Part shown: positions 30,969 to 47,590 of the stretch, in pieces
Position numbering within the stretch: the stretch's first letter is position 1
Layout: each line of letters starts with the position of its first letter
Assembly (NCBI GenBank): GCA_963724325.1
Contig: CAVRUH010000011.1
Span: 33,540-97,539, forward strand
DNA: 64,000 nucleotides
Direction: 5' to 3'
Origin: Waddliaceae bacterium
Lineage (GTDB): Bacteria; Chlamydiota; Chlamydiia; Chlamydiales; Waddliaceae
Notes under the pieces: model-generated
Seen by the model: only the letters and a program-made list of their open reading frames with translations
What the model was told of the DNA's origin: nothing
Database searches by the model: none
Position numbers and translations under genes: made by a program

Positions 30969-31023
30969 AATCTTGTTTTTTTGCTGGTATGAATCTGTGC
31001 ATTATGATATATTTCATGACATT

Positions 31024-31107
31024 GCCGATGTGGCGAAATCGGTAGACGCGGTAGACTCAAAATCTACTCCTGGCAACGGGGTGCTGGTTCGAGTCCGGTC
31101 ATCGGCA
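31024..31107 (+). tRNA. tRNA-Leu(CAA)
   Basis: gccgatg...gtagactCAAaatctac, long variable arm, ggttcgagtcc, catcggca. Confidence 0.97.
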
Positions 31108-32664
31108 ATTCACCGGACAAACTCTCTTCAAAGAGGATTTGTCCGGTTTTTTCATTTTCTAACCCCTTGTTTTTCTGCAAGATAAGTGCAAGCGCCGGAT
31201 TTAATGGGGTGGTTCGATAACTATCTTCTCGAAAATGCAATTTTGCAGGGAATATCGAACCAAGCAGTTTTTGCTTAATTTCCACAGAAGCATTCATGTA
31301 AAAGCCACTCAAATTGCTCAAAAGTGGAATGCCAAAGCGGCAATACTTCATGAATCCCGTTTCACTGCTTTCCTGCAATTCGATTTTCTTCCACAAAATA
31401 GCAATCTCTTCTTTTAATTTTGAAATCATCCGCTGAATGCGAATCTCTATCAATTTCTCGATTCAATAGCATGTCATCACATCGCGCGATCTTGTCTTCT
31501 TGATCTTTTATGCGTTCCTTTAGTCCTTGAATCTGCTTTTTGCGATCCCCTTCATTTGATTTGAAAGTATCCTCAAGAATGGCCATATAAAGCTCAGAAA
31601 CCTCAGATGGAATCGTTAAAGACTTCAGATAATCATCCAATTTATCGTTCAGAAAATTCGCGCTGAATCTTGTCTTACAAGTATTTTGGCAATGATAATA
31701 CCCATAATAGCTGCCATTACGGCTTTTAGAAAGGCTTCCAGTCAAATTACGACTACACTCAGGACAAATAAGAAGTCCGCGTAAGAGGAAATTCTTCTCT
31801 CTGCTTTAATTTTGCAGAAGGAATGCAACTTTTTTCTCCTATCTTTCTAAGCACTGACTGCACTCGATGGAAAAGATCTTCATTTACCAAAGCTTCATGC
31901 AAGCCCGGAACATAGTATTCTTCCTCCTCATCAAATTCAGGTACTTTTGTTAACCCGATGTAAGTAGGATTGCGAAGTAAGTCATAAAAGGCGCTTCTTC
32001 CTATCTTAAGCCCCTTTTCAGAAAGTAATTTCCGAACATTATCAATGGAATATAATCCCAATGACACAACTTCAAAAGCTTCTCGAATTAAAATAGCATT
32101 TTCATCCGGCACTATAATTGTTTTGCCGTTTGCATTCCGCTCCCTTTTATATCCCTTTGGAGGAGGGCCTGTGTACCTTCCTTCTTTTCTCGCTCGAATG
32201 ATTCCTGTAGTAGTGTTAAGAGCTCTCCGTATGTTATCGGATTCCCCTTCAGCAAGCTTAAAGGCTCGAACATAAGGAAATATAGGATCTCTGCGAGAAA
32301 TTGTCTCTTCTAAACATTTGACTTGAACTCCTAATTTTTCAAGACGGTCTATTTCTACATAAGCCTGAGTCACATTACGGGAAAAGCGATCCCAGCGGAG
32401 GACATAAACATAGTCAATTGTTTTTGGATGCACACAAATATATTCATATAATTCTTGAAAAGCTGGACGATGTTTAAAGTCCTTAGCAGAATAGCCATCA
32501 TCTTGAAAATGCTCAATAAGCTCGACGCCCTCCTTTTGACAGTGCAATCTAAGTATTTCCTCCTGATTCTTCAAGCTGTATCCATGAACTGCCTGTTCCT
32601 CTGTCGAGACCCTCGTGTAGATTAGAGCTCGCTTTATCTCTTTTGGTTTCTTTGTAAAAATCAT
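31064..32664 (-). CDS. Large serine recombinase (resolvase + recombinase + Zn ribbon + coiled coil); two apparent +1 indels near 31783 and 31437
   Basis: YTRVSTEEQ, DDGYSA, RWDRFSRN, PPKGY, NPTYIG, HEALV; corrected frame gives FPLRGLLICPEC...YYHCQNTC; C-terminus runs antisense into the tRNA. Confidence 0.9.
31112..31152 (+). terminator. Intrinsic terminator after tRNA-Leu (identical copy at 40823-40863)
   Basis: accggacaaa...tttgtccggt stem followed by a T-run. Confidence 0.75.
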
Positions 32665-32876: not shown

Positions 32877-33728
32877 TTAATCCAATTTAATCCGCTTTAC
32901 TCTCTTTCTAGAGGCAACAACACCATCAGAAATCCTTGTTGAAATGATTGCCTCTGTTTCATTTTTTGCGATCTCATTATAAGGGACATGTCGCGTAAAT
33001 CCCTTTTCAATTTCAACATTTGATATCTTCCCTTTGGCTTTAGTGATTTTGAGTGAATCAAAATCTTCTTTATTCATGATGTTGCATAATTCATTCTGTT
33101 CCAAGGTAACAGGTCGTTCTATGGGGAATTTTGATTCAATTTCTATTTTTTGAAATATTTTGTTCATTAAAGGATTCAAATGGATGAATAGACCATCGGT
33201 AATCCAATTAAAACACATCGCGCTTGTCATCTCGGTGTATGACAAAAATTCAGACTGTCCATCTGGAATCGTTACAAAAAAAGCGGGCGTCTTAAAATAC
33301 AAAGCGGCAACCACATAGTACTCTATGTATTTCAAATCATTATGCGGGATTTTTTCAAAAAAAAATGGTTTGGCTTGAGCAACTTTCTCAAGAGAAATTC
33401 CCATCTCGCGCATTTTTGTAATCACATGTACCCAAAGAACTTCAGCAAGATTGAATCTTCGCCATCCTGTGGAGGATTCTCTTTCGCATTCAATTAAATT
33501 TATTGAATCCCAATGATGTAAGGTGCGATAGGATACTGAATCAAGTTTCAGCTCACATGTCCTTTCCCTAAAAAGTTCAAGATTCTTCAATGCCTGCTCA
33601 GAATCCTTAAGCTTCTCAAGATTAGAAAAGAAAACATCTCCTCTGAAATATGTCGCTAAGGGATTTTTTCTTTTACTGAGGTAAGCATCAACTTCCTCAG
33701 ACCCTGAAGTAAATTTTTTCGTTTTCAT
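32877..33728 (-). CDS. MerR-type HTH domain protein
   Basis: VSYRTLHHWDSINLI...GWRRFNLAEV...MREMGISLEKV. Confidence 0.75.
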   Translation of the reverse strand: MKTKKFTSGSEEVDAYLSKRKNPLATYFRGDVFFSNLEKLKDSEQALKNLELFRERTCELKLDSVSYRTLHHWDSINLIECERESSTGWRRFNLAEVLWVHVITKMREMGISLEKVAQAKPFFFEKIPHNDLKYIEYYVVAALYFKTPAFFVTIPDGQSEFLSYTEMTSAMCFNWITDGLFIHLNPLMNKIFQKIEIESKFPIERPVTLEQNELCNIMNKEDFDSLKITKAKGKISNVEIEKGFTRHVPYNEIAKNETEAIISTRISDGVVASRKRVKRIKLD

Positions 33729-33840: not shown

Positions 33841-34266
33841 CTAGTAAGAAATTGAAACGGTTTTTTCTTGAATCAAGCTTTCAACATCGATATCAACAGC
33901 ACTTTTCATTTCACCAGAGTGAAATCGGATATTGATCAATTCTGATTTCAATTTATTTTCGATAACCATAATAGTTGAAATAAGATCTTTAGTTGGGAGG
34001 CTTTTAAAATCTCGGCGTGAGAGTTCGTCTAGGGCCTTACTCAATGTGCTAGCTAGGGATTCTATTCTAAATCTTTTCAAAATCCGATATTGCTCTAACA
34101 AGCTTTCTACATTGAAAAAAATTAAATTCGCCACTTCACTAGAACACTCCCTATTCCATTTGATTAAAGTTGGTTTTGAAATTCCAATTTTTTCAGAAAT
34201 TTTATCATACGAAAGCCCTTGTGCTCGAAGTTGAATGAACTCTGTTTTTAGAATTTGATTTTTCAT
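33841..34266 (-). CDS. N-terminal HTH protein
   Basis: LRAQGLSYDKISEKIGISKPTLIKW. Confidence 0.75.
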   Translation of the reverse strand: MKNQILKTEFIQLRAQGLSYDKISEKIGISKPTLIKWNRECSSEVANLIFFNVESLLEQYRILKRFRIESLASTLSKALDELSRRDFKSLPTKDLISTIMVIENKLKSELINIRFHSGEMKSAVDIDVESLIQEKTVSISY

Positions 34267-34306: not shown

Positions 34307-37300
34307 TTAATCTAAACAAACACCCAAGTTATCTAACTTGAAAACATATTCATCACTTAATTTCCCTTTTTTATAACTATAACGCTGCCAATTAACCCAT
34401 GCGAGCAGTTTTTGTTCATCGTCCTTTTTCGTAACGTTGGCACTACCCTTGGTTCGTTTGAGTTCACACAACTTAAGATACATACTCTCCCACATGTCAC
34501 TAAGAGGATCCCAAACAAATCCCAATTTTTCAAGTCGTTCTGTATATTCCTGCGATAGTCGCCCATTTCTATAAGATTGACGTTGTCGGTTTACCCATCT
34601 ACCCAATTTAATGTTCTGGTGGTATTTTGCTGGTACGTTACAATGTTTATTCTCTTCTTGAAATTTGCATAAAGCATCAAACATCTCTTCCCAAGAATTT
34701 GCAAAAGGCTCCCAGTTAAAACCAATTTCAAATAGTTTTTTTTTGAGTTTAGGGCAAATGGTTCCATTGCGAAACGAAGTGCGCTGCCTTACAACCCATC
34801 GCGCAAGCTGTGAAAGTTCAGAAGTGCTTGGAATATTACAATGTCCATTAACCGTCTTAAATGCGCAAAGAGCCTTAAACATTTCCTCTCTTATTGTATT
34901 ATTAGGCTCCCAACAAAATCCTATTGCCTGCAATTTAGTAATACGTTCATCTAGCAGTATTTCCTGCCTATAATGATCGCGTTGGTGTGATACCCACCCA
35001 CCAAGTTTTGGATTTTCCGGAAAATATTGCGGTACATTGCAATGCCCAGAGCTATTTTTAAACTCAACCAATGCATTGTACATTTCTTCCCAGGCATCAT
35101 TTATAACATTCCATGTAAGTCCTAGTTGCTCAAGTCTAACAATGCGTTCAAGGAGTAAAATACCCTTTTTATGTGCGTTCCGTTGTCTTCCAATCCATTG
35201 AGCAAGCTCCAAATTTTTCTCGGATTTTTGTGAAACATTGCAATGACCATTTTCTGACTTATAATGCAATAATTCTGCAAACATTGCTTCCCATTGGTCA
35301 CAATATGGATCCCAAACAAAGCCAAGATTTGTTAGCTTTTCCGCACGCTCCTTTGAAAGTACCCTCTTTTTATAGTCTCTGCGCTGAATGCTAACCCAAT
35401 TTCCTAGACTTGGCACTCTTTCATAATCTTTCGGTACACTGCAATGGCCGTTTTCATTTTTGAATTTACACAATTCGGAAAACATTTCTTCCCAAGCATT
35501 TTTATTAGGATCCCAAACAAAACCTAATTGTGTAAGCTTCTCGAGCCGCTCTTTTGATATTTTATTTTTCTTAAACACATTACGTTGAACGCTAACCCAA
35601 GTAGCAAGTTTTGGCGACTTTTCATATCCTCTAGGTACATTGCAATGCCCATTTTCTTGTTTAAACTTACATAATTCTAAGAACATTTCTTCCCAAAATG
35701 AATGGAGAGTATTCCAAGTGAAATCCAACTGATTGAGTTTATCGAAACGATAGGTAGATAATTTGCCTTTACTTTGCTGCAACCGTTGTTTAGAAACCCA
35801 TGCACCCAATCTTGGATTATCAGAATATTCTTTTGGCACATTACAATGGCCATTGGCATTTTTATACTCGACCAATTCATTATAAATTTCATCCCATAAT
35901 GCATTTAAAGGATCGAATATAAATCCAAGCTCTTCTAAACGATTAACTCTTTGATTATCTAAGGCGTTTTGTCTGAATGCTTCTCTTTGGTGTGCAACCC
36001 ATGAACCCAATTGCCTGTTTTTATATTTAGGCGGGACATTGCAATGGCCCATGTCTTTTTTAAATTGTACGAGTGCTGTATACATTTTTTCCCAAGCGCT
36101 CTCATTTGTATTCCATTCAAATCCAATTTTTTCAAGCCTTTCTCGACGGTGTGAGGCCATTCTACCATCTTTATAGTCACTGCGTTGTGTGGTTACCCAA
36201 GTAGCAAGTCGAGGATTCTCAGGGTATTTTGTAGGAACATTACAGTGTTCAAACTTGTCTTTGAATTTACACAACTCCAAAAACATATTTTCCCACGCTG
36301 CAATATTTGTATCCCACACAAATCCTAGATCTTCCAGCATTTTAATACGCTCAGGCAGGCATTTCCCTTCTTTATATTGGGCGCGTTGAGTATTGACCCA
36401 AGTAGCAAGTTGCGGGTTTGAAGGATATTTTTGTTTCACATTGCAATGCCCATATTCTTGCTTAAATTTGTTAAGTTCAAAAAACATCTCCACCCAAGCT
36501 ACAATAAGAGGGTTCCAGACAAAACCAATCTCTTCGAGCTTCTTGATATAATTGAGAGCTAGTTTGCTTTTGCTGTAGTTTTGTCGCTGCTTTTGGACCC
36601 ACGTACATAGGCGTTCATTTCGAACAGAAGCCATCCAGACGTCTAGATGGCCTGTACTTTGTTTGAACTCGCATAAAGCATTGAACATTTCGTACCATGC
36701 TGCATCAAACGGATTCCAAACAAAACAAATTTTATTAAGTTTTTCAATTTTATCTTTTGATAGTTTGTTTTTCTTGAAATATGATCTTTGAATACCAACC
36801 CAAGAGCCAAGTTTAGGATTTTCTAAAAATGTATCTGGAACATTACAGTGTCCATATTTTTCTTTAAACTGCAGAAGTTCGCCATAGCGCTCATCCCAAC
36901 TGGAGCTAAGTTTATCAACTAAAATAGTCGTAATAGTTTGACGTAAAAAGTTTATCTCAAGTTCAGGGCCTATGAACTCCAGACGCTCTCTTAATCGGCT
37001 ATCATCAAATCTCCCTTTGTTGCCGATGTCTTCGCGCATTTGTTGGATAATTTCAGCCAATTCTTCATCCTGTTCCAACATGGCTTCTAAAACATCCCAA
37101 ACCTCTTCAAATTGAGTACTTTCTAATGCGCTTTCTAGATGTTCATCTTTGGCTGTTTGTAGATGGATAGGCAGTAAAATATAGCCAAATTGTTTATCAC
37201 GAGCTTTACGCATAGCTCTGCCAGCAGCTTGGACTATATCTACTCTGCTTTTTTTAGGAGACATGAACACCACCATATCAACGGCAGGAACGTTTACGCC

Positions 37301-38884
37301 TTCAGTAAGACATCTCGCATTTGATATAATGGCCTGAGTAGCTTGTTCAAATTCTCGCATGATCATTTCACGTGTACTCGTTGGCATTCCACCATTTACG
37401 TGATACGTACTAAAATTATCGAGGTAGGCTCCAGCCCCCTCTTCCGATCTAGAAGTGAATGACTTTGCTGAATCAACAGAGCTGTGGAAGGTGAATATTT
37501 GCTTCACGTTGAACTTTTCAATAGCTGCCTTTAGAGCAAAAATCCGCGCAATCTGATTAGCTTTAATGACGTCACCATTAACAATGACCTCTCCTCGCTT
37601 TAATAGATCTCTCGTAATGGTTTCATCCGTCACAATTGAAATGATAATCTTATAAGGACATATAATCCCCTTAGCTGCAGCAGAAGCAAAGGAAAGTTTA
37701 TGAGAAGTTGTCCCATAAATTTCGGGATTATCCATGGAACAAACAAGACGGAGATTGCCTTCTCTATCTTTTTTCTTTATATCATAATGTTTTGGAGTTG
37801 CCGTGAGAAATAAGCGCTTCTGAATCAAAAAATTTTCATTTTTTAAGGCGAATCCAAAAGTCGTCCCATCTCTTCCAGTCGTTTTGTGAGCCTCATCGAA
37901 TATTCCCAAATCAAATGAATATCCAGTAGGTAACCCCTGAGCAAGGACTTTCGAAGAATGGTATGTGGAAAAAATTATTTTACGCTTGTTCGTCTTGTTT
38001 TGAAGGAATAAATGAATATCCTCGCTTGAAGTCGTTACAGGAAAATCTAGATCTGTTTGATTAAGTACAATTTCATCAATTCCCTTGACCACACTTTTAT
38101 CTGAACATACACAAAGAAATGAATAATCTTGCCAAATCGTCTCTTTCATCCACTCATGTAACATTTGTCTGATTAAAGAAAGAGAGGGAACTAGAACAAC
38201 GATAGAGTCAACATTCAATCTTTCTGCAAGCCAAAGAGAAAGCAAGGTTTTTCCTGTTGCACAGGCCATCACTGCAGTAGTACGATTATTGATTTCTAAT
38301 GTGGAAATAATTGTTGCAAGCGCTTCTTCTTGGTGTGGAAAAGGCGTTTTTCTTTGATATACGATGGTTCCGCTTTTGAGCCATTCTTCAATGCCCTGAA
38401 AATCATCTTTCGTAAGAGAATCTAAATCATTGCCTTTTATCACATAAAAGTCTGTTCGATCCTGCATTAAGGCCGGAAGATCACAAGAGTTTGTAAAAAG
38501 AACACGCTTATGGACACGGTCACTCATTCCCATAAAAGTAGAGAGTTCTTCCCAAGTCAAGTTTGTGCGATTGGAGCGAAATTTAACCTGATAAGCATGA
38601 TAATGGCCTTCTTTAGTGAGAACGACACCGTCGATACCCATATCCTTTTTAAAAAGTCCTAAGGTATCACGTAAACTAATAGGCACTTCCTTATCTGGCC
38701 ATACATCAGAAGCTTGAGCTATTTTTTGCGTTGAAAAGTATGCCTCTGCAAAAACTTCAAAAGCATCACCGCGTTCATGTTCTGGTAATTTTGAAATTCT
38801 ATTTTCCAACTGATTAAAAGTACGAATGTCTTTAAAAAGTTCTCTATCAACAAACTTCTTAGTCTTTGAATGCTTTGGTTTCAT
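34307..38884 (-). CDS. Mrr-like nuclease + SF2 helicase + 13 helicase-associated (HA) repeats
   Basis: GDAFE, DMGIDG...YQVK (PD-QxK nuclease); MACATGKT, FDEAH, TATP and QAAGRAMR (helicase); 13 repeats of about 67 aa, W-x2-M-x3-L...GHCNVP...WV-x2-QR...LGFVW. Confidence 0.9.
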   Translation of the reverse strand: MKPKHSKTKKFVDRELFKDIRTFNQLENRISKLPEHERGDAFEVFAEAYFSTQKIAQASDVWPDKEVPISLRDTLGLFKKDMGIDGVVLTKEGHYHAYQVKFRSNRTNLTWEELSTFMGMSDRVHKRVLFTNSCDLPALMQDRTDFYVIKGNDLDSLTKDDFQGIEEWLKSGTIVYQRKTPFPHQEEALATIISTLEINNRTTAVMACATGKTLLSLWLAERLNVDSIVVLVPSLSLIRQMLHEWMKETIWQDYSFLCVCSDKSVVKGIDEIVLNQTDLDFPVTTSSEDIHLFLQNKTNKRKIIFSTYHSSKVLAQGLPTGYSFDLGIFDEAHKTTGRDGTTFGFALKNENFLIQKRLFLTATPKHYDIKKKDREGNLRLVCSMDNPEIYGTTSHKLSFASAAAKGIICPYKIIISIVTDETITRDLLKRGEVIVNGDVIKANQIARIFALKAAIEKFNVKQIFTFHSSVDSAKSFTSRSEEGAGAYLDNFSTYHVNGGMPTSTREMIMREFEQATQAIISNARCLTEGVNVPAVDMVVFMSPKKSRVDIVQAAGRAMRKARDKQFGYILLPIHLQTAKDEHLESALESTQFEEVWDVLEAMLEQDEELAEIIQQMREDIGNKGRFDDSRLRERLEFIGPELEINFLRQTITTILVDKLSSSWDERYGELLQFKEKYGHCNVPDTFLENPKLGSWVGIQRSYFKKNKLSKDKIEKLNKICFVWNPFDAAWYEMFNALCEFKQSTGHLDVWMASVRNERLCTWVQKQRQNYSKSKLALNYIKKLEEIGFVWNPLIVAWVEMFFELNKFKQEYGHCNVKQKYPSNPQLATWVNTQRAQYKEGKCLPERIKMLEDLGFVWDTNIAAWENMFLELCKFKDKFEHCNVPTKYPENPRLATWVTTQRSDYKDGRMASHRRERLEKIGFEWNTNESAWEKMYTALVQFKKDMGHCNVPPKYKNRQLGSWVAHQREAFRQNALDNQRVNRLEELGFIFDPLNALWDEIYNELVEYKNANGHCNVPKEYSDNPRLGAWVSKQRLQQSKGKLSTYRFDKLNQLDFTWNTLHSFWEEMFLELCKFKQENGHCNVPRGYEKSPKLATWVSVQRNVFKKNKISKERLEKLTQLGFVWDPNKNAWEEMFSELCKFKNENGHCSVPKDYERVPSLGNWVSIQRRDYKKRVLSKERAEKLTNLGFVWDPYCDQWEAMFAELLHYKSENGHCNVSQKSEKNLELAQWIGRQRNAHKKGILLLERIVRLEQLGLTWNVINDAWEEMYNALVEFKNSSGHCNVPQYFPENPKLGGWVSHQRDHYRQEILLDERITKLQAIGFCWEPNNTIREEMFKALCAFKTVNGHCNIPSTSELSQLARWVVRQRTSFRNGTICPKLKKKLFEIGFNWEPFANSWEEMFDALCKFQEENKHCNVPAKYHQNIKLGRWVNRQRQSYRNGRLSQEYTERLEKLGFVWDPLSDMWESMYLKLCELKRTKGSANVTKKDDEQKLLAWVNWQRYSYKKGKLSDEYVFKLDNLGVCLD

Positions 38885-38904: not shown

Positions 38905-39510
38905 TTAATTACTAAAAATAAGAGAAATGTTTTTATTGATTTCATTTCGAAATTCTTCTGTGATTTCAAAAACATCCTGAATAATATTTATTTTCTCAAA
39001 CTGCTCAGCAACGCTTTTTTCTACTTCTATATTCTCTAAAATCGGCACGTGTGTGTTTAGAGATTCCTCTAGTTTAGCTTTTGCGCGCTTGAAAGTATTC
39101 CTGGCTATTTGTTCATAATGAGAAGCAAACTTTTTAGGATTATTTTTATCTAAATGAGGGGGGTGATTTAGCATTCCCATTCCCCTGCTATTTTCATTCC
39201 CTAAGAACGTGTAGAAAAAACCATCAAAAGATAGTTTGACGGATTTGCGAGCTACTCGCTTTTCTGTTTCTCCATATTTCGGAGAAGCAATGATCAGAGA
39301 GCCGCTGCCAGTGTTTGTATTAACTTGATTACCATTACCTTTAATAGCAACCGCAGCGGTATTTAGACCTTTATTTGCTTGAGCAATTAAAACGTCTCCT
39401 TTTTTACTTTTTGCAGTGACTTCTGTTTTATTTCGAACGTACTTAATTGTAAGTGGAAGTGCTATTGTTAAAGCTATAGCTCCAAGACTAAAAGTGATGG
39501 CCCAATCCAT
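38905..39510 (-). CDS. Hypothetical protein with N-terminal TM helix
   Basis: 201-aa ORF, hydrophobic residues 3-22, ends 20 nt before the helicase start. Confidence 0.7.
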   Translation of the reverse strand: MDWAITFSLGAIALTIALPLTIKYVRNKTEVTAKSKKGDVLIAQANKGLNTAAVAIKGNGNQVNTNTGSGSLIIASPKYGETEKRVARKSVKLSFDGFFYTFLGNENSRGMGMLNHPPHLDKNNPKKFASHYEQIARNTFKRAKAKLEESLNTHVPILENIEVEKSVAEQFEKINIIQDVFEITEEFRNEINKNISLIFSN

Positions 39511-39731: not shown

Positions 39732-40682
39732 ATGACCGAGCCTTTAAAAAAGCATCTTTTAGTAACCTTCAAAGGGATAAACTATGTCTTAGGAACTTTC
39801 AGTTTTAATATTAAAGAGGAGCAATTTATCTATCGGTTTTCATATCCCAATGGTCCGCAGAGGCACCTTAATGTAGATACAGGTGAGTTTACCGAGCCTT
39901 ATGATCACATAACTTGGCATAAGAATCTTGTTCACATGAAAAGAGGGAAGGACATCGTTGAGGAATTTGTATATCAACAAGGACCGTTGATTTGCGGAAC
40001 CGACTATATCTCGCCTCTTATGATTGAAACAATAAAGTTAAGCGAATCACCTTGCCTTGCAAGAGAAAATGAGTTTCCTTTTTGGAAGAATGCTGATCGT
40101 GAACACATTTTTACGATTGAACCTGACGGGTATTTTAGTACGATTTTATTTTTAGTTCCCGCAAACATGCCAACCGCTAAAGCATTGGATTGTTTTTGGC
40201 GGGACATAAAAACACAGTCCGGTGATATTCTGGACCGCACATATGTAAGAAATCTCTGCGACGGTTCCCATAGTACTCCTCGCTTTAAAGTTTGGACAGC
40301 ATATGACGTTCTATTGGTTTGCTCTCCCTATTGTCAGCGGCCAACAAATGTTCCCCCCGAAATTGGAGATAGCTATCGTATTCCTAACTACAAACATCCT
40401 GACAAGGCGCTTAAAGAGTTGATATTGCATAGACAATCAGAAAAATGTTCAACTTTCATTCGAAGCCGGAAAGTTATTTGGCTGACGCCTCCGCTTCAAA
40501 TTCGCCAACATCCAATGTTTCCCTTTCTTTGGGCAGAAAGAGCGGAAAAGCTTACAAAATTACATAAAGTTATGAATATTTTCCACACTCCCCCTTGGAA
40601 CCCCCTCAGGCATTGCCTTTATTGTTCTATTTATATGAAGGAGGTAAAGAAAGAGGGGAAAAGCAGCGTAAAATGCTGCTAA
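39732..40682 (+). CDS. Hypothetical protein
   Basis: 316-aa ORF with AAGGA upstream; no motif recognised. Confidence 0.7.
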   Translation: MTEPLKKHLLVTFKGINYVLGTFSFNIKEEQFIYRFSYPNGPQRHLNVDTGEFTEPYDHITWHKNLVHMKRGKDIVEEFVYQQGPLICGTDYISPLMIETIKLSESPCLARENEFPFWKNADREHIFTIEPDGYFSTILFLVPANMPTAKALDCFWRDIKTQSGDILDRTYVRNLCDGSHSTPRFKVWTAYDVLLVCSPYCQRPTNVPPEIGDSYRIPNYKHPDKALKELILHRQSEKCSTFIRSRKVIWLTPPLQIRQHPMFPFLWAERAEKLTKLHKVMNIFHTPPWNPLRHCLYCSIYMKEVKKEGKSSVKCC

Positions 40683-40803: not shown

Positions 40804-41130
40804 GTCCGGTCATCGGCAATTCACCGGACAAACTCTCTTCAAAGAGGATTTGTCCGGTTTTTTCATTTTCTAACACCTTATTTCTCTGTAGGATAAGTGC
40901 AAGCGCCGGGTTCAATGGGGTGGTTCGATAACTGTCTTCCCGAAAATGCAATTTTGCGGAGAATATCTAACCAAGTAGCTTTTGTTTAATTTCCACATTA
41001 GCATTCATATAAAACCCCCTCAAATTGCTCAACAGCTGAATACCAAAGCGGCAATATTTCAAGAATCCAGTTTCACTGGTTTCCTGCAATTCAATCTTCT
41101 TGCGTAAGATAACGATCTCTTCTTTCAATT
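40804..41130 (-). pseudogene. 3' remnant of a second, related serine recombinase
   Basis: 327 bp homologous to 31093-31419 (first 71 nt identical); in-frame TAG at 40967-40969; homology stops abruptly at 41130. Confidence 0.9.
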
Positions 41131-41177
41131 ATGGTCACTATTTTCACCAATTTTTTGAAGCTCTAAGCAATGTTTTT

Positions 41178-42284
41178 CTATTTAATAGAATTTAAAAAAT
41201 CTTCACTTGTTTTAGCCATGTTTAACATCAAATCATAATCTTGTTGGGAAATTTTCAGTTCTCTGTTAATGGTTTCAATTTTATATTGATAAAGGAATGT
41301 CCGTAACATCGCTGCTTTTAAAATTTTTGGTGAATTCGATTGAAACACAAGAGTATATAGTTGAACCATTAAGTCTGTAATGTTCTCAAAGGATGCACTA
41401 TTGATGTTCCCTAAAATGATTTCTAACTCAATTTGAGCTGCCTGATGAATGTCAAAACACCAGTTCCTTTGTTTAGCAATTGATTGATACGCCTTTTCTA
41501 AATAAGGCAAAACTTCTTTTTGCAGCATATCTGTGGAGTGTGATCCAACCGCTTCAATTCGATTTAAAGCGTTCATATAAGCCTCTTTAACTGGTTGAGG
41601 ATCTTGAACACCAAAAAAATACGCTATTTGTGCTTCAAAGGTTTCTAACTTATCTTTTTCAAACATTGGAAAATCCCTGTAACTAGAAGGTGAATTATCT
41701 CTTTTTTGGATATCCTGTATCTCGAATCTTAAACAATTTTCTCCTTTTGGCCCCAAGTTGGTGCATGCATATAAATCTTCGGGGGGCAATTCATATATTG
41801 CTGGTTCCAAATGCAATAACTCTTCACATCCATTCCGATATTCAATTTTGTATGAAGCTTCTTCAAAAACAACAAGTAAGCTTTTCCAAGCATGGGAGTG
41901 AAATGGTTCTCTCTCACCTGGTGCAGCGCACCCGGCCAGTATTCGCACATATGGAGTTTCAAAAATAACGGGATGAAATTTAGTTGCTTGAATCACTCCA
42001 TCATCATGTGATAGATGGGTTAAATCTTGATCGATGGGAAATTGGATATTCTGTTCAAATGACTCTATTCTAAAATCGTCTATAAGAGAACATCCCTTCT
42101 CACCCTCAAAAAACGGTTGAAAATATTTACAGATGAAAGCTGATGTACGGGGATCAATTCCCCAACAATGTTCAAAACAGTTTTTCAGTTCTACATCTTT
42201 CGTTAAATTTAAGTCAGAGACTTCTATAGATAAAAGTCTGCTACTTGATAAGACAGCAAATAGAGTTATCCAAAAATAATTCAT
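41178..42284 (-). CDS. Putative exported protein with a cupin-like domain
   Basis: Signal-like N-terminus MNYFWITLFAVL; VRILAG...PGEREPFHSHAW cupin-like motif. Confidence 0.55.
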   Translation of the reverse strand: MNYFWITLFAVLSSSRLLSIEVSDLNLTKDVELKNCFEHCWGIDPRTSAFICKYFQPFFEGEKGCSLIDDFRIESFEQNIQFPIDQDLTHLSHDDGVIQATKFHPVIFETPYVRILAGCAAPGEREPFHSHAWKSLLVVFEEASYKIEYRNGCEELLHLEPAIYELPPEDLYACTNLGPKGENCLRFEIQDIQKRDNSPSSYRDFPMFEKDKLETFEAQIAYFFGVQDPQPVKEAYMNALNRIEAVGSHSTDMLQKEVLPYLEKAYQSIAKQRNWCFDIHQAAQIELEIILGNINSASFENITDLMVQLYTLVFQSNSPKILKAAMLRTFLYQYKIETINRELKISQQDYDLMLNMAKTSEDFLNSIK

Positions 42285-42973
42285 TTTTTCCTTTAATTTT
42301 ACCCCGTCAGGTATTTGAGAAAAAAGTTCGAGCATTGCAGGGTAATCGGGTTTGTTTGGTGAAGAGAAAGGATCTTTCGACTAACTTATCCATAATATCA
42401 CGATAACATTAATTTGCATGTTAACACAAGTGATGTTATCGTGCAAGAATATGATTTTCAAATAAAGTTTTGTGGTGGGCAGCATCAATATTGCCTTTGT
42501 AGTCCATAAGGTCTTGAAAAAGCACCTTTCGAAATATCGCAACAGAAGAATTTTTTGAAAATGAATTCGACTATAACTTACTTGTGATCAATTCCATTTC
42601 AGTTTGAGAATTATCAACAAATTCATGAGTACTAATTATTAACTCTAAAAGTTTTTTCATATCTTCACGCTGGGTCACTTCTAATTTGCACCAGTTATTT
42701 TCATGACGGTGAAAAAATTCAACTTTCATTTTATCGGAAAATGCCTGTTGCATTTGTTCACAACCTAATTTTTCCCTATGGGTTCCACTGTGAAATTCGG
42801 AATAAAAAAATTATTGTTTTTATAAAAAAACAACCGTGAAAAACGCTAAAAGACTATTAAGACAAACGTTTAGAATAAAAAAACTTTATCGATGTTTTTT
42901 ACCGCTTATCTATGTTGACAAATTGAGGCTAACCTGATAAATTTAGTGGCAAAATCGTAAAAAAAGGTGATTA

Positions 42974-44077
42974 ATGAAAAATCTTGGTAAACTATTTGTA
43001 TTCCTGACTTTTTTAACTTTTCAATCAGCTCTGTTTTCGGTTGAGAAAGAACAAGTTGTGATTAATGAATGTTATCTCTCTCCTGACATTGAGGAATTTG
43101 ACTGTCATAGTTCCTGCTTGATTGAAGCCTCTCCTGGTATCCTATGTGCAGTTTGGAAAGGAGGTCCCGGCAAAGGAATGAGCAATATTGATTTAAAACA
43201 AAATGTGGGAATCTGGCTATCCTTATTTAAAAACGGTGAATGGAATGCCCCTAAACAAATTGTTGAAACTCCTAACTCTGTGTGTTGGACTCCTGTGCTC
43301 ACAAAATATCCAGATGGAAAACTAGTGCTTTTTTTCAGAGTGGGATCTGATCCTCGACATACCATTTCTCTATCTAAATATTCATTGGATGGCGGGGTCA
43401 ATTGGTCGGATACAGAAATATTACCTGCAGGTATTGTTGGACCTACAAAATCAAAACCCATTTTTGATAATAACGGAAATATGATATGCGGTTGCTCTGT
43501 TGAAGTCGGTTCTCCCGACGATGAGCTTAAAGCAACAGCTTGTTGGATTGAAATTCTCTCAAATGATAATCATTGGTCAAAATATGGACCTATTGAAATC
43601 CCTGGCAAGAGATTTGGTTGCATTGAACCCACTCTATTTTGGGGAAGCAATGGATCATTAAAATTGCTGTGTCGTGATCGCTCTAATCGAGTAGATTTGG
43701 AGGGATGGATATGGGTAGCAGAATCTTTTGATAATGGAAAAACATGGTCTGAATTAAAAAAGACCCCTTTACCAAATCCTGATGCTGGAATTGACACATT
43801 ATCTCTAAGCAATGAAAACATTCTGCTGATCTATAATGATTCACATACAGATCGATATCCCCTTACTGTAGCTCTATCAAACGATAATGGAAATTCGTGG
43901 ATTCCTCTTTTGGATCTTGAAAGTGAATCTGGAGAATTTCCATCCGCAACATTAGACTCACAAGGCCTTGTTCATGTTTCTTATGCACACATTCCTACTG
44001 GAAAAACACAAAGGCGTATTAAGCATGTTGTTATAGATCTTAACAACATATTGTGTCCAATGAGATACAAAAAATGA
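42974..44077 (+). CDS. Exported sialidase-family / BNR-repeat protein
   Basis: Signal peptide; Asp-boxes SLDGGVNWS, SFDNGKTWS and SNDNGNSW; LPNPDAGID. Confidence 0.85.
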   Translation: MKNLGKLFVFLTFLTFQSALFSVEKEQVVINECYLSPDIEEFDCHSSCLIEASPGILCAVWKGGPGKGMSNIDLKQNVGIWLSLFKNGEWNAPKQIVETPNSVCWTPVLTKYPDGKLVLFFRVGSDPRHTISLSKYSLDGGVNWSDTEILPAGIVGPTKSKPIFDNNGNMICGCSVEVGSPDDELKATACWIEILSNDNHWSKYGPIEIPGKRFGCIEPTLFWGSNGSLKLLCRDRSNRVDLEGWIWVAESFDNGKTWSELKKTPLPNPDAGIDTLSLSNENILLIYNDSHTDRYPLTVALSNDNGNSWIPLLDLESESGEFPSATLDSQGLVHVSYAHIPTGKTQRRIKHVVIDLNNILCPMRYKK

Positions 44078-44216
44078 CAGATGGGAAATTTATCGACTTG
44101 AAGGCAGACCACGCCCCATCAGTTACTTTGTAACACCTTAAAGAGATTTAATGTAGATATTTACCTTGATTTTTATATGTTGCTTGTCTATGAATTTAAA
44201 CGTTTAAGGAGAAACT

Positions 44217-44837
44217 ATGGAGAATGTATATCTAAACGAAACGAGTTTTCCAATTGTCAGAAATAACTATGTGGTTATTTCTGGGTGTTCAGGCGGAGGA
44301 AAGTCTTCTCTCTTGTCTGAATTTGTAATTAGGGGTTTCGCTGTTGTCCTTGAACCTGGGCGGCAAATAGTAAAGGAACAAAACGTGATCGAAGGAGATG
44401 CCCTGCCATGGACCAATCCTCAAAAGTTTCTTGATCTCGCATTATCGCGTTCTTTATATCAATATAATTCTCAAGAAAAGTCACAGCAATTTGTCTTTTT
44501 TGATCGCGGAATTATCGATGCCCTCCAGCTAGATCAACCTCAGCCAGCATATTTTCAAAATGCAGCTCATAAGTTTAGGTATAATCGCGTAGCCTTTCTA
44601 GTACCCCCCTGGAAAGAGATTTTTGTAAACGATGCAGAGCGAAAGTATAGTTTTGAATCATCAAAGAAAGAGTTTGATGAACTCCTTATCAAATACAAGA
44701 CTTTTGGTTATGAAACAGTGATTCTCCCTAAAGTTTCTGTAAAAGAAAGAGTCGACTTCATTCTCAAAAAACTTGAAGCTTCAAATGCAAAGCAAATGCA
44801 AATTGACGGTAAAATCGATAATGGCTTATCTACTTGA
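44217..44837 (+). CDS. Predicted P-loop ATPase (AAA_28 type)
   Basis: ISGCSGGGKSS, EPGR, FFDRGIID and PPWKEIF motifs. Confidence 0.85.
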   Translation: MENVYLNETSFPIVRNNYVVISGCSGGGKSSLLSEFVIRGFAVVLEPGRQIVKEQNVIEGDALPWTNPQKFLDLALSRSLYQYNSQEKSQQFVFFDRGIIDALQLDQPQPAYFQNAAHKFRYNRVAFLVPPWKEIFVNDAERKYSFESSKKEFDELLIKYKTFGYETVILPKVSVKERVDFILKKLEASNAKQMQIDGKIDNGLST

Positions 44838-44855
44838 AAACAGGGTTAGCGCTAT

Positions 44856-45059
44856 TTATGCCCATATATAGCCATCTTGGTAACTTCCATCTCGATTTCG
44901 AACTGATTGTGGTATTGTGCCGATAATGTTAAACCCAAGTTTTTCATAAAGTCTAATGGCGAGAATATTTTTACTGAGTACCATATTAAATTGCATTGCA
45001 AGGAATCCAAGATCTTTAGCAAAATGCAGAGATGCTTTAACTAAAAGAGATCCAATCCC
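44856..45059 (-). pseudogene. C-terminal half of a GNAT acetyltransferase
   Basis: Own translation: GIGSLLVKASLHFAKDLGFLAMQFNMVLSKNILAIRLYEKLGFNIIGTIP...; the N-terminal half is absent. Confidence 0.8.
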
Positions 45060-45689
45060 TTAGCTCCCTATTAAAGTATTGATGAGTAATTGAGCCAGCC
45101 ATTTCTCATATTCTTCAGATGTCCATCCTTGTTCTACCACGAACATGCGATACATATCGCGCCCAGTAAAAGCCCAGAGGATATCGCGAGCTTTCGTTGC
45201 GCTAAGTCCTTTAGCAAGGGACTTTTCTCTTACCATTGCTTTTATGGTCACTTCTTGCCGATTGTAACGGCGCATTTCTCTTTCTTTTTCAAGCTCTTTG
45301 AACTCAGGAGCCAGACATGCAGCGCCTCGAAAAATATCCATTTGCGCCCTCTCTGCATCGTACATTTGACGTGCGATTTTAGCAGAAATACAGAGGCGCT
45401 CTTTTGGCGATTTCTTCTTGTATGCTCTTTTCCACAAGGTCATCGAATTGATCTGTGAGGAAGAGCCTCATCCATTAAAGCTCGAAGCACACCACGCTTA
45501 GATTGAAAAAGGGAATAAATGGTGGGAATTGAAACGTCTGCAGCTTGAGCTATTTTTTCAATCGTTACACACTCAAATCCCTCTGATTCAAAAAGATTTT
45601 TTGCAGCAGGTAAGAATGCGACCTCTTGTTTGTGCTGCTTGTGTATTTCTGGCTGTTGACTTATAAGGTCTTTTTTTGATTTCTGACAT
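45060..45689 (-). CDS. TetR-family regulator, three apparent +1 indels
   Basis: Reconstructed MSEIKKRPYKSTARNTQAAQTRGRIL-AAKNLFESEGFECVTIEKIAQAADVSIPTIYSLFQSK...GWTSEEYEKWL. Confidence 0.82.
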
Positions 45690-45729
45690 ATTGGGTATAG
45701 CTCACTATATTTAATGTTGACATAATGGA

Positions 45730-45756
45730 TATAGTTTACTATAATCAATATTGATT
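45730..45756. promoter_or_regulatory. Candidate TetR operator palindromes
   Basis: tatagt-tt-actata adjoining the perfect palindrome aatcaatattgatt in the divergent intergenic region. Confidence 0.45.
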
Positions 45757-45781
45757 GTCAAAAAAAATCCAAAAGGAGGAG

Positions 45782-46141
45782 ATGATGATGACAGATACAA
45801 AGGCTATAGGAGTAGCTTATTATACGGCCCTTGGAGAGAAAAATATCGAAGAGGTGAAAAAATATTTGCACCCTGATATTCAATTTACCGATCCACAAGA
45901 AAAAGTAATCGGTAGAGAAGCTGTCCTTAAAGCAGCGAAAGGATTCACTGGTATTTTTAAAACTTTAACAATCCGCGCAAAATTTGGTTCAGAAAATCAA
46001 GCGATGATTGTCTATGATGTAGAAATTCCTGGCCTTGCCAAAAAATTGCATGCTGCCTCTCTGTTGAGTTTTCAAGAAGGACTCATCTCAAAGATCGAGC
46101 TTTTCTATGACTCTAAAGGCTTAGTAGGAAAGCAAGAGTAA
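45782..46141 (+). CDS. SnoaL/NTF2-like protein
   Basis: YLHPDIQFTDP...GREAV...GLISKIELFYD; AGGAGG RBS; divergent from tetR. Confidence 0.85.
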   Translation: MMMTDTKAIGVAYYTALGEKNIEEVKKYLHPDIQFTDPQEKVIGREAVLKAAKGFTGIFKTLTIRAKFGSENQAMIVYDVEIPGLAKKLHAASLLSFQEGLISKIELFYDSKGLVGKQE

Positions 46142-46199
46142 ACTTTTAACTATTTAGATACCCCCAATTCAGCAAGAAAAGGGGGTATTGAAAAAATCC

Positions 46200-47525
46200 T
46201 TATAATCCCTTAGGAACTCTGCCGGCAAGATAGATTGGATAACGGTGAATTTTATCGTTAATGGATGGGGGATTGGCGCTAAAAATAATTCGATAAGGCG
46301 ATTTATACTTATCAGAGAATATCTTAATGCTTTTGGCTTGTTTTACCCATCCTGATTTTACTTCAATGGGAATTGCGTAACCGTTCTCTTCAATTAGGAA
46401 TTCAACTTCGGCCGTCTTTTCCTGCCAACTATACAGCTTTGTTCTTCCGCTTGACAAAAGAGCTTCAGCGACATAATTCTCTACAAAAAAACCTTTATAA
46501 GAGCCCCAATTGTAATCCATGATTACGCTCGGGGATATCTGTGCCATAGCTCCAAGCAGTCCTACATCAAAAAGATATAGTTTAAAAGTATTATCTTCTT
46601 CGTAAGCTGAAAAAGGAAGTTGTCCAGAATTGACAATTGGTACTTTGATGATTAAACCAGCACCAATTAACCAATCCAAGGCGCCCACCAACTTTCCATA
46701 TCGATCTATTCCCGGAACTGCTCCTTTAAATACATATTTTGTAGCAGACCCATCTTGAGATCTAGAAAGTTGTGCAGGGATAGACTCGAAAATTCTAGCA
46801 ATATGCATTGCATTAATTGAACCGGAATGTTTTGCAATATCTGCAAGATATGAGTCAATAAGTGTTTTCTGTTTTTCTCTTACCCGCAGAAATGCATTGA
46901 ATAAATTATCCTTGTGTTTTACAAAATCATCTACAAGCTCTGGTAGACCACCAACGACTAAATAGTTTTTAAGCTGTTCCCAGAGACGTTCATGTGCAAA
47001 GTGCGGAATTTGAGGATCGTCTATATTAAAATCATGTAAAACTTCCAACACTTGGTAATCTTCTTGAGCTAACAAAAATTCTTCAAAATTCATTGGATAG
47101 AGGGTAAGCATATCCACTTTACCCACTGGAAAGGAAGTTGGTGCAAGGTAAATGCCAAGCAAAGAGCCAGCAGCGCAGATGGCAATCTGCGGCATTTTTT
47201 CATGAAAGTATTTGAGGCTGGTAAGTGCTCTTGGGCACGCTTGAACTTCATCAAAAATTAGAAGGTCATTATTAATATCGATATCTTTGTTTAAATAAAA
47301 CCTGAGTTCTTGGATGAGGTGTTCCGGGTTTAGGTTTACTGAAAAAATATCTGCTAATTGCAAGTCTTCTTCAAAATTTAGAGAATGCACATTTTGAAAA
47401 TATTTCTGTCCGAATTCATTCAACAAGGTGGTTTTACCCACTTGTCTTGCCCCTTGGAGGATGAGCGGTTTACGGTCTGGATCATCTTTCCATGCAACTA
47501 GCTTTTGTAATAAAAATCGTCTCAT
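46200..47525 (-). CDS. AAA_14 ATPase with DUF4143-type C-terminal nuclease-like domain
   Basis: GARQVGKT, FDEVQ, AAGS, GGLP, KLYLFDVGL and EVEFL...PIEVKSG motifs. Confidence 0.9.
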   Translation of the reverse strand: MRRFLLQKLVAWKDDPDRKPLILQGARQVGKTTLLNEFGQKYFQNVHSLNFEEDLQLADIFSVNLNPEHLIQELRFYLNKDIDINNDLLIFDEVQACPRALTSLKYFHEKMPQIAICAAGSLLGIYLAPTSFPVGKVDMLTLYPMNFEEFLLAQEDYQVLEVLHDFNIDDPQIPHFAHERLWEQLKNYLVVGGLPELVDDFVKHKDNLFNAFLRVREKQKTLIDSYLADIAKHSGSINAMHIARIFESIPAQLSRSQDGSATKYVFKGAVPGIDRYGKLVGALDWLIGAGLIIKVPIVNSGQLPFSAYEEDNTFKLYLFDVGLLGAMAQISPSVIMDYNWGSYKGFFVENYVAEALLSSGRTKLYSWQEKTAEVEFLIEENGYAIPIEVKSGWVKQAKSIKIFSDKYKSPYRIIFSANPPSINDKIHRYPIYLAGRVPKGL

Positions 47526-47537
47526 ACTACCAATTAT

Positions 47538-47590
47538 CGTTAATTTTGACATTTTTTGGTATCACTTTTCCGTTAATTTTGACATTTTTT
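47538..47590. repeat. 20-bp direct repeat pair upstream of the AAA_14 gene
   Basis: cgttaattttgacatttttt at 47538 and 47571. Confidence 0.75.

Follow-up and report, generated by a model that had tools for sequence, protein, structure and literature searches.

A nuclease-motor gene with thirteen HA repeats in a Waddliaceae tRNA island: a candidate methylase-free, restriction-like enzyme with a code-like repeat array

The stretch of DNA analysed here, which we call the window, covers 64,000 nucleotides (nt) of a Waddliaceae bacterium (assembly GCA_963724325.1, contig CAVRUH010000011.1, positions 33,540 to 97,539), and an island at one of its tRNA genes carries a gene in which a nuclease and a helicase-type motor are joined in one chain to a long array of HA repeats. 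An earlier note on this DNA had proposed the gene as a candidate defence system. We found that five positions in the second helix of each repeat behave, in the way they vary, like the specificity residues of zinc fingers, and this code-like array is the finding that is new and of value here, the domain architecture being that of a family already known to the databases. The gene and its parts lie as follows, in window positions (aa, amino acids).

34307..38884, minus strand: nuclease-motor-HA array gene, 1525 aa, intact (scan of open reading frames (ORFs), Pfam, and ratio of nonsynonymous to synonymous change (dN/dS) against the orthologue L017)
38435..38797, minus strand: Mrr-family PD-(D/E/Q)xK nuclease, about aa 30-150 (LlaGI alignment, Pfam)
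37025..38353, minus strand: Type ISP-like superfamily 2 (SF2) motor, about aa 178-620 (PDB alignment, model)
34310..36919, minus strand: 13 tandem HA (PF03457) repeats, aa ~656-1525 (Pfam, repeat spacing)

The reading frame runs without an internal stop, as had been noted before. In the protein, which serves as the query throughout, Pfam places Mrr_cat_2 at aa 56-124 (E 2e-8), ResIII at aa 180-365, Helicase_C at aa 451-560 and HA in 13 stretches (E 2e-248), with units of 66-67 aa and a spacing in the DNA of 198-201 nt. From aa 656 to 1525 there are HA repeats throughout, with no methyltransferase (MTase) or target recognition domain (TRD) stretch, and Pfam detects no known modification-reading domain. 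The top solved proteins are LlaBIII (query residues 17-616, E 3e-62) and then LlaGI, and the same two are the top Foldseek matches of an AlphaFold model of aa 1-1130 (predicted local distance difference test, pLDDT, 83.7), with SauUSI among the structural neighbours of the motor. No NCBIfam model reached its cut-off, and PADLOC 2.0 gave no full-length system match: restriction-modification models of ~1600 positions match aa 21-616 only, the remaining matches are helicase cores, and both the PDB and the PADLOC matches end at residue 616. Domain search, structure prediction and a look for an existing classification had been proposed as checks, and they bore out the Mrr-like nuclease, the 13 tandem repeats behind the helicase, and a protein assigned to no PADLOC system.

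Query residues E43, D81, D85, Q99 and K101 align with E38, D74, D78, Q92 and K94, the nuclease residues of LlaGI (PMC3553963), and among 120 listed homologues they are kept in 115, 111, 118, 118 and 119 proteins, respectively. In the motor, Walker A K212, a DEAH box at 330-333, T363, a beta-hairpin at 365-383 and motif V R524 were recognised, T363 and R524 corresponding by alignment and model to T376 and R564 of LlaBIII and the hairpin to its translocation hairpin. The helicase that the earlier note called complete does have the SF2 domains and motifs, and is better described as a motor of the ISP type. In LlaBIII this motor moves along double-stranded DNA as a translocase; its ATPase is activated by target binding of the C-terminal unit, and the beta-hairpin and R564 couple ATPase to translocation (PMC7049714). 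Between the window gene and L017 dN/dS is 0.06 in the nuclease, 0.11 in the motor and 0.15 in the array, and purifying selection thus acts on the whole gene. Synonymous divergence from L017 is 2.8, near saturation, in the nuclease part (38435-38884), as against 0.5-0.6 in motor and array, which suggests that the nuclease segment was swapped by recombination in one lineage.

No methyltransferase was found by Pfam among the 15 ORFs scanned around the gene, in agreement with the earlier note. A cognate methylase elsewhere in the host assembly (84.6% complete) was considered and set aside, since four DNA-methylase families (PF02384, PF01555, PF00145, PF02086) gave no match above the cut-off; PF01555 had two sub-threshold matches. 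The single-chain, methylase-free, ISP-like nuclease-motor that had been postulated is supported, with its catalytic residues kept. Type ISP enzymes (LlaBIII, LlaGI; PDB 4XQK, 5FFJ) share with the query the Mrr nuclease and SF2 motor over residues 17-616, and the query retains the E-D-D-Q-K catalytic set, the beta-hairpin, the motif III Thr and the motif V Arg. However, they hold MTase and TRD in the same chain, whereas the query lacks both and has 13 HA repeats instead; its motor falls outside the ISP branch, and the HA family has fewer defence neighbours. The query is thus not a Type ISP enzyme, differing in its missing MTase/TRD and in the grouping of its motor. In an unrooted FastTree phylogeny of 143 motors, which gave long-branch warnings among its viral rows, a single branch (SH-like 100) holds 55 ISP motors and 4 truncated rows, and the query lies outside it together with all other repeat-bearing motors. 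HA repeats do stand in the place of MTase and TRD, as had been claimed, but that they replaced them is not shown: with an unrooted tree and all repeat-bearing motors outside a single ISP branch, the direction of change is not given and methylase loss is not demonstrated.

The gene is not a rarity. At least 4795 of 7996 scored candidates pass E 1e-10, other architectures included, and the Atlas clusters of this widespread family, which databases label only 'Helicase associated domain protein', score 0.99-1.00. All of the 120 listed homologues have HA, with 6-17 repeats each, and none has a methylase family in the accession lists, which were read by eye. The distribution is patchy: a full-length match occurs in one of 40 relatives, and nine of 301 genomes of the phylum match at E 1e-100, six with HA tails (the host's own genome included) and three with other tails. 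HA proteins at 79 viral loci include 10 with the nuclease, of which four lie on GVMAG-named contigs, and 15 without it, some being near-copies; in a collection of cultured phages 3 records match, none covering 80%. Four soil sequencing runs match, with shares of at most 0.10, and there is no RNA run among those listed. Two other arrays occur on related proteins. A repeat of ~70 aa, rich in tryptophan and weakly like INT_rpt (PF14882, which matches 3 of the scanned tails), sits on the same motor at L043, L049-L052, L054, L058, L059 and L073, and a tandem repeat of ~75 aa without a Pfam match follows the same nuclease-motor at L069, L080, L089, L122 and L060, carriers that include three Planctomycetota loci and one viral contig; L060 joins this second type to two HA units. 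The tail of a further viral nuclease-motor protein (L115:11765-13030) has no Pfam match and contains CxC motifs like those of zinc ribbons, which we take to resemble the DNA-binding parts of phage homing endonucleases. Upstream of the family member at L034, five ORFs of 162 aa, also without a Pfam match, are spaced at exactly 616 nt (L034:1755-4704).

The variation of the array was studied column by column over 1269 HA repeats. Columns 36, 39, 40, 43 and 44, which we call the code columns, rank among the six most variable and surround the invariant W37, Q41 and R42 (a W-x-x-x-Q-R motif) on one face of helix 2. Threonine, arginine, serine, alanine and asparagine are frequent in them and glutamate and lysine scarce, and helix 2 bears a net charge of +3.8 per repeat, while the remaining two helices are close to 0. 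Repeats within one protein are 12% identical at these columns, whereas between the query and three orthologues 58, 61 and 58 of 65 code residues are the same (89-94%) and 19 other variable columns of orthologous repeats are 70-75% identical. Among 18 disjoint pairs the code columns lead in 17, two near ties included, and only 83 of the 42504 possible five-column sets score as high (permutation p 0.002). The spacing i, i+3, i+4, i+7 along the helix resembles that of zinc-finger contacts. C2H2 zinc-finger and TALE arrays, like those of HA, are built from tandem units in which a small number of residues are hypervariable and position-specific; their folds are unrelated to HA, and the likeness serves as a working analogy.

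Changes at the code columns are concentrated where repeats have been duplicated. In 16 recently duplicated pairs within proteins the ratio of nonsynonymous to silent differences per site (pN/pS), with denominators taken from silent sites of codons other than the code codons, is 1.45 at the code columns, 0.69 at other variable columns and 0.20 in the core; in 12 between-protein pairs it is 1.18, 0.69 and 0.20, and in 12 repeat pairs of the window gene and L017 the code columns give 0.17. Pairs were picked by core divergence, as picking by low pS biases the ratio (1.86). Exchange of whole helix patches as a source of the code changes found no support, silent change being 0.30 in the helix scaffold and 0.33 elsewhere.

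Arrays move separately from the motors they follow. Although the L196 motor is 34% identical to that of the query, repeats 2-9 of its array align with repeats 1-8 of the query at 60% identity, and they share 27 of 40 code residues as against 57 of 150 other positions (p 0.001). Conversely, L188 and L189, with motors 93% identical, have 1 of 25 code residues in common, and L062, L063 and L067, with motors 87-91% identical, stand at different sites with different codes. Of the 165 pairs whose motor identity is 85% or more, which are not independent of one another, 39 share at most 20% of the code and 32 share at least 60%. In a group with 17 repeats (P0014, P0023, P0027, P0037) the code varies in repeats 2-5, 7 and 8 and is mostly conserved in 9-17, as if the array had been retargeted in part.

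A model of three repeats (pLDDT 96.8) has the three-helix HA fold of 2KTA, matched at Z 7.6 with a root-mean-square deviation (rmsd) of 5.1 over 73 residues, the only match at Z of 5 or more, and by Foldseek with a probability of 0.89 and an rmsd of 2.4. A likeness of the W-x-x-x-Q-R helix to homeodomains or Myb was dropped, none being among the fold matches listed (top 50 and top 25).

Taken together, we consider it probable, by a small balance, that the query is a methylase-free, ATP-driven, restriction-like nuclease whose array reads a long site that the host lacks. The array is predicted to bind a long DNA sequence, each repeat laying its basic helix 2 on the DNA and reading a few bases, and binding of the site would activate the motor as MTase-TRD does in LlaBIII. 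The enzyme would then move along the DNA by ATP hydrolysis and cut with its nuclease, the precedent of LlaBIII and Type ISP being double-strand translocation, with the nuclease firing when two enzymes collide; in Type ISP, breaks made by such translocation and collision require two head-to-head sites (PMC4666363). The combined site would be long enough to be absent from the 2.4-megabase host genome, and because of this no self-methylation would be needed; at two bases per repeat, 13 repeats would make the chance of a site in 2.4 megabases negligible. The target would be invading or competing mobile DNA, and specificity could shift by duplication of repeats, point change at code positions and swapping of whole arrays. 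This reading is supported by the domain order, the conserved residues, purifying selection, the failure to find a methylase partner and the code-like evolution of the repeats, which also lends support to the earlier suggestion that the array is the sensor. Further support comes from the two other repeat types on related motors and from HA domains on PLD nucleases and on site-selecting TniQ proteins: HA is named in TniQ of nrdD-targeting elements (bioRxiv 2025.07.27.667033, figure legend), tandem HA occurs in telomeric TniQ and in TtrA with recognition left open (bioRxiv 2024.11.13.623437), and for DNA binding by HA the paper on PLD nucleases cites Mills 2013 (PMC12191111). A defence role is plausible but unproven.

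Several results weigh against this interpretation. One of the 18 disjoint pairs is strongly opposite, its code columns lying far behind, and two are near ties. The code codons' own pS is 0.54, and as the 16-pair ratio drops below 1 when it is used, positive selection at code positions after duplication is likely but stops short of proof. Behaviour similar to that of the code positions is also seen in the loop (positions 26-27) and in the linker (positions 3-4), so that a code of five positions is approximate; columns 26-27 may form a second contact. The HA fold matches 2KTA only, with no protein-DNA structure among the fold matches, and base contact by helix 2 is for this reason suggested by the behaviour of the sequences. 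Helicase-HA forms without the nuclease are common on plasmids and phages, and TtrA, the HA-helicase for which a role is reported, takes part in moving telomeric ends (bioRxiv 2024.11.13.623437). Many family members, moreover, stand alone amid housekeeping genes, some interrupting runs such as the his and pur genes, and the enrichment in defence islands that had been proposed as a check found little support. Among 80 genome loci, 34 have HA repeats, of which 28 were used and 6 dropped (contigs under 6 kilobases, kb), giving 241 neighbour ORFs (our own ORF caller, up to six per side); the control consisted of all 12 ISP loci with a methylase motif, with 107 neighbour ORFs. PADLOC matches at E 1e-20 were obtained for 13 of 241 HA neighbours and 15 of 107 Type ISP neighbours (p 0.01), in a comparison of the two sets with each other, not with a random-gene background, and across differing taxa. 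Removing generic matches by hand (ABC, ankyrin, kinase, WD40, TnpB, reverse transcriptase, GlgB, exonuclease, UvrA) left 5 of 241 and 14 of 107, or by locus 5 of 28 and 6 of 12 (p 0.056). At the 28 HA loci Pfam found a named defence gene at 2, a toxin-antitoxin gene at 6 and a mobile-element marker at 8, and no DNA methylase among the 241 ORFs.

Among other explanations, the one that survives best, although we regard it as unlikely, is a modification-dependent enzyme of Type IV kind on the plan of SauUSI, in which the HA array would sense modified bases and the unmethylated host would be spared. Like the query, Type IV enzymes have a nuclease without a cognate methylase (none was found in the host assembly, 84.6% complete as stated), the nuclease here is of the Mrr family, and SauUSI, an ATP-dependent Type IV enzyme and structural neighbour of the motor, is likewise a single chain of nuclease, SF2 motor and recognition domain. 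HA is also fused to PLD defence nucleases, among C-terminal domains framed as modification sensors, and SauUSI itself differs in having a PLD nuclease and 5-methylcytosine as its target, where the query has Mrr and a repeat array (PMC12191111). A modification sensor, however, needs no 13 differently coded repeats, kept in order in orthologues and diversified after duplication, and the matches to Type IV models in PADLOC are weak and do not extend beyond the helicase core.

Somewhat less probable is a motor serving a mobile element in the manner of TtrA, in which the array would bind the ends, the origin or the transfer site of the element, and motor activity and nicking would assist transfer, excision or replication. 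Streptomyces TtrA, which we compared by description only, has an SF2 motor and then tandem HA as in the query and is tied to telomere transfer (bioRxiv 2024.11.13.623437); 483 plasmid records match the query (173 Streptomyces, 115 Pseudomonas), and the window gene lies inside an integrated element. Yet 39 of 40 listed plasmid matches start at query residue 183-184, that is, without the nuclease that the query has, as do most of the plasmid and phage helicase-HA forms examined, and TtrA is sub-telomeric on a linear Streptomyces replicon beside tap and tpg, whereas the query occupies an internal tRNA island with a serine recombinase. In addition, none of six island ORFs recurs at the other family loci compared, L017 has a different setting, and a mobile-element marker is present at no more than 8 of the 28 loci. 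One protein of the plasmid type, at L186:7971-10628 on a Pseudomonas megaplasmid, is a helicase with six HA repeats in which the absence of the nuclease was checked; such proteins occur frequently on the large plasmids of Pseudomonas, surrounded by hypothetical genes.

A shade less probable again is an array that acts as a sequence-independent grip or spacer on DNA, with the variable residues a free surface and the trigger being DNA shape, ends or a phage protein. The fold matches include no structure with DNA, repeat number ranges from 6 to 17 and other surface positions also vary, all of which fit such an array, but a free surface is not expected to be more conserved in orthologues yet more changed after duplication, nor to keep its order on a motor 34% identical (L196). 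Homing enzymes recognise long sites without a methylase. This, together with members that interrupt housekeeping runs and nuclease-bearing forms on giant-virus contigs, favours a selfish nuclease of homing type, one that would spread by cleaving a long conserved site in alleles without the gene or in the genomes of competitors. We hold this explanation the least probable, since L062, L063 and L067, for all their similar motors, differ in site and code, and since a translocating ISP-type enzyme cleaves at random places distant from its site (PMC4666363), which suits destruction better than homing.

Returning to the restriction-like reading, a broader claim is more tentative, and we put it forward as a possibility that we do not favour outright: HA arrays may be naturally occurring, programmable DNA readers whose code, ~5-7 residues per 67-aa unit, can be learned, and nuclease-motor-array proteins may form a protein-programmed, methylase-free restriction class. 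Bacteria and giant viruses would redirect the translocating nuclease of this class through duplication, recoding and exchange of repeats, comparable to the retargeting of zinc-finger arrays against transposons in vertebrates. If so, self and non-self could be told apart in a third way, next to methylation and RNA guides, by a protein array that reads a long site and can be recoded; the arrays would offer a new scaffold for programmable DNA binding, already present in many natural code variants; and the HA domain, common to TniQ target selectors, TtrA and PLD nucleases, would gain a function. With the code positions identified, the reading can be put to a direct test through motif selection and the exchange of repeats. 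The query belongs to the helicase-HA group (PF03457; PDB 2KTA), in which ResIII and Helicase_C are followed by tandem HA and for which the literature searched gave a domain label, with no function or code; nothing was found on nuclease-motor-HA proteins or an HA code, most subscription papers lying outside the coverage. HA goes unmentioned in the main text of a 2024 screen for DNA-binding repeat proteins (PMC11417379), and another paper has a chlamydial DEAD/DEAH helicase as a list entry only (PMC7642681).

The gene was described in the earlier note as the main cargo of a tRNA island, and this agrees with what surrounds it, the other features being as follows.

31023..31108, plus strand: tRNA-Leu(CAA), the insertion site (tRNA scan)
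31093..31392, plus strand: left copy of a 300-nt direct repeat, starting with the 15-nt tRNA 3' core (31093-31107) and covering the recombinase 3' end
31064..32664, minus strand: large serine recombinase gene in three frames (31759-32664, 31362-31745, 31064-31453; ORFs, Pfam)
32877..33728, minus strand: MerR-type helix-turn-helix protein, 283 aa, an island gene (Pfam)
33841..34266, minus strand: HTH_23 protein, 141 aa, directly downstream of the array gene (Pfam)
38905..39510, minus strand: ORF of 201 aa directly upstream of the array gene, no family in Pfam, NCBIfam or PADLOC
39732..40682, plus strand: ORF of 316 aa inside the element, no family in Pfam, NCBIfam or PADLOC
40804..41103, plus strand: right copy (90%) of the direct repeat and right end of the element, with the 15-nt core (40804-40818) and the 3' remnant of a second recombinase gene

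The element spans 9.7 kb between the tRNA-Leu 3' end and an exact second copy of its terminal 15-mer, which has 2 exact matches where 0.04 are expected, and its GC content is 37% as against 41.5% to the left. The serine recombinase adjoining the tRNA appears to be either a pseudogene or the product of assembly indels. An empty insertion site was not shown, as a genome of the same genus has the tRNA and the cysS region on different contigs. When six island ORFs were compared with the other family loci collected none recurred, so that no conserved partner gene was found and the nuclease-motor-array gene is a solitary cargo; the orthologue L017, 84% identical, lies in a different gene setting from the window copy. 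Since both copies of the 15-mer continue into a 300-nt repeat encoding a recombinase 3' end, a second, decayed element follows the first at 40804-47552, with the recombinase 3' remnant and then a low-GC cargo of a BNR-repeat protein, AAA_28 and SnoaL. This second element also carries an AAA_14-DUF4143 protein matching PADLOC PDC-S01 (E 2e-137), and at 45060-45748 on the minus strand a TetR-like regulator seems, by eye, to be split into two overlapping ORFs, the larger of which has no Pfam match.

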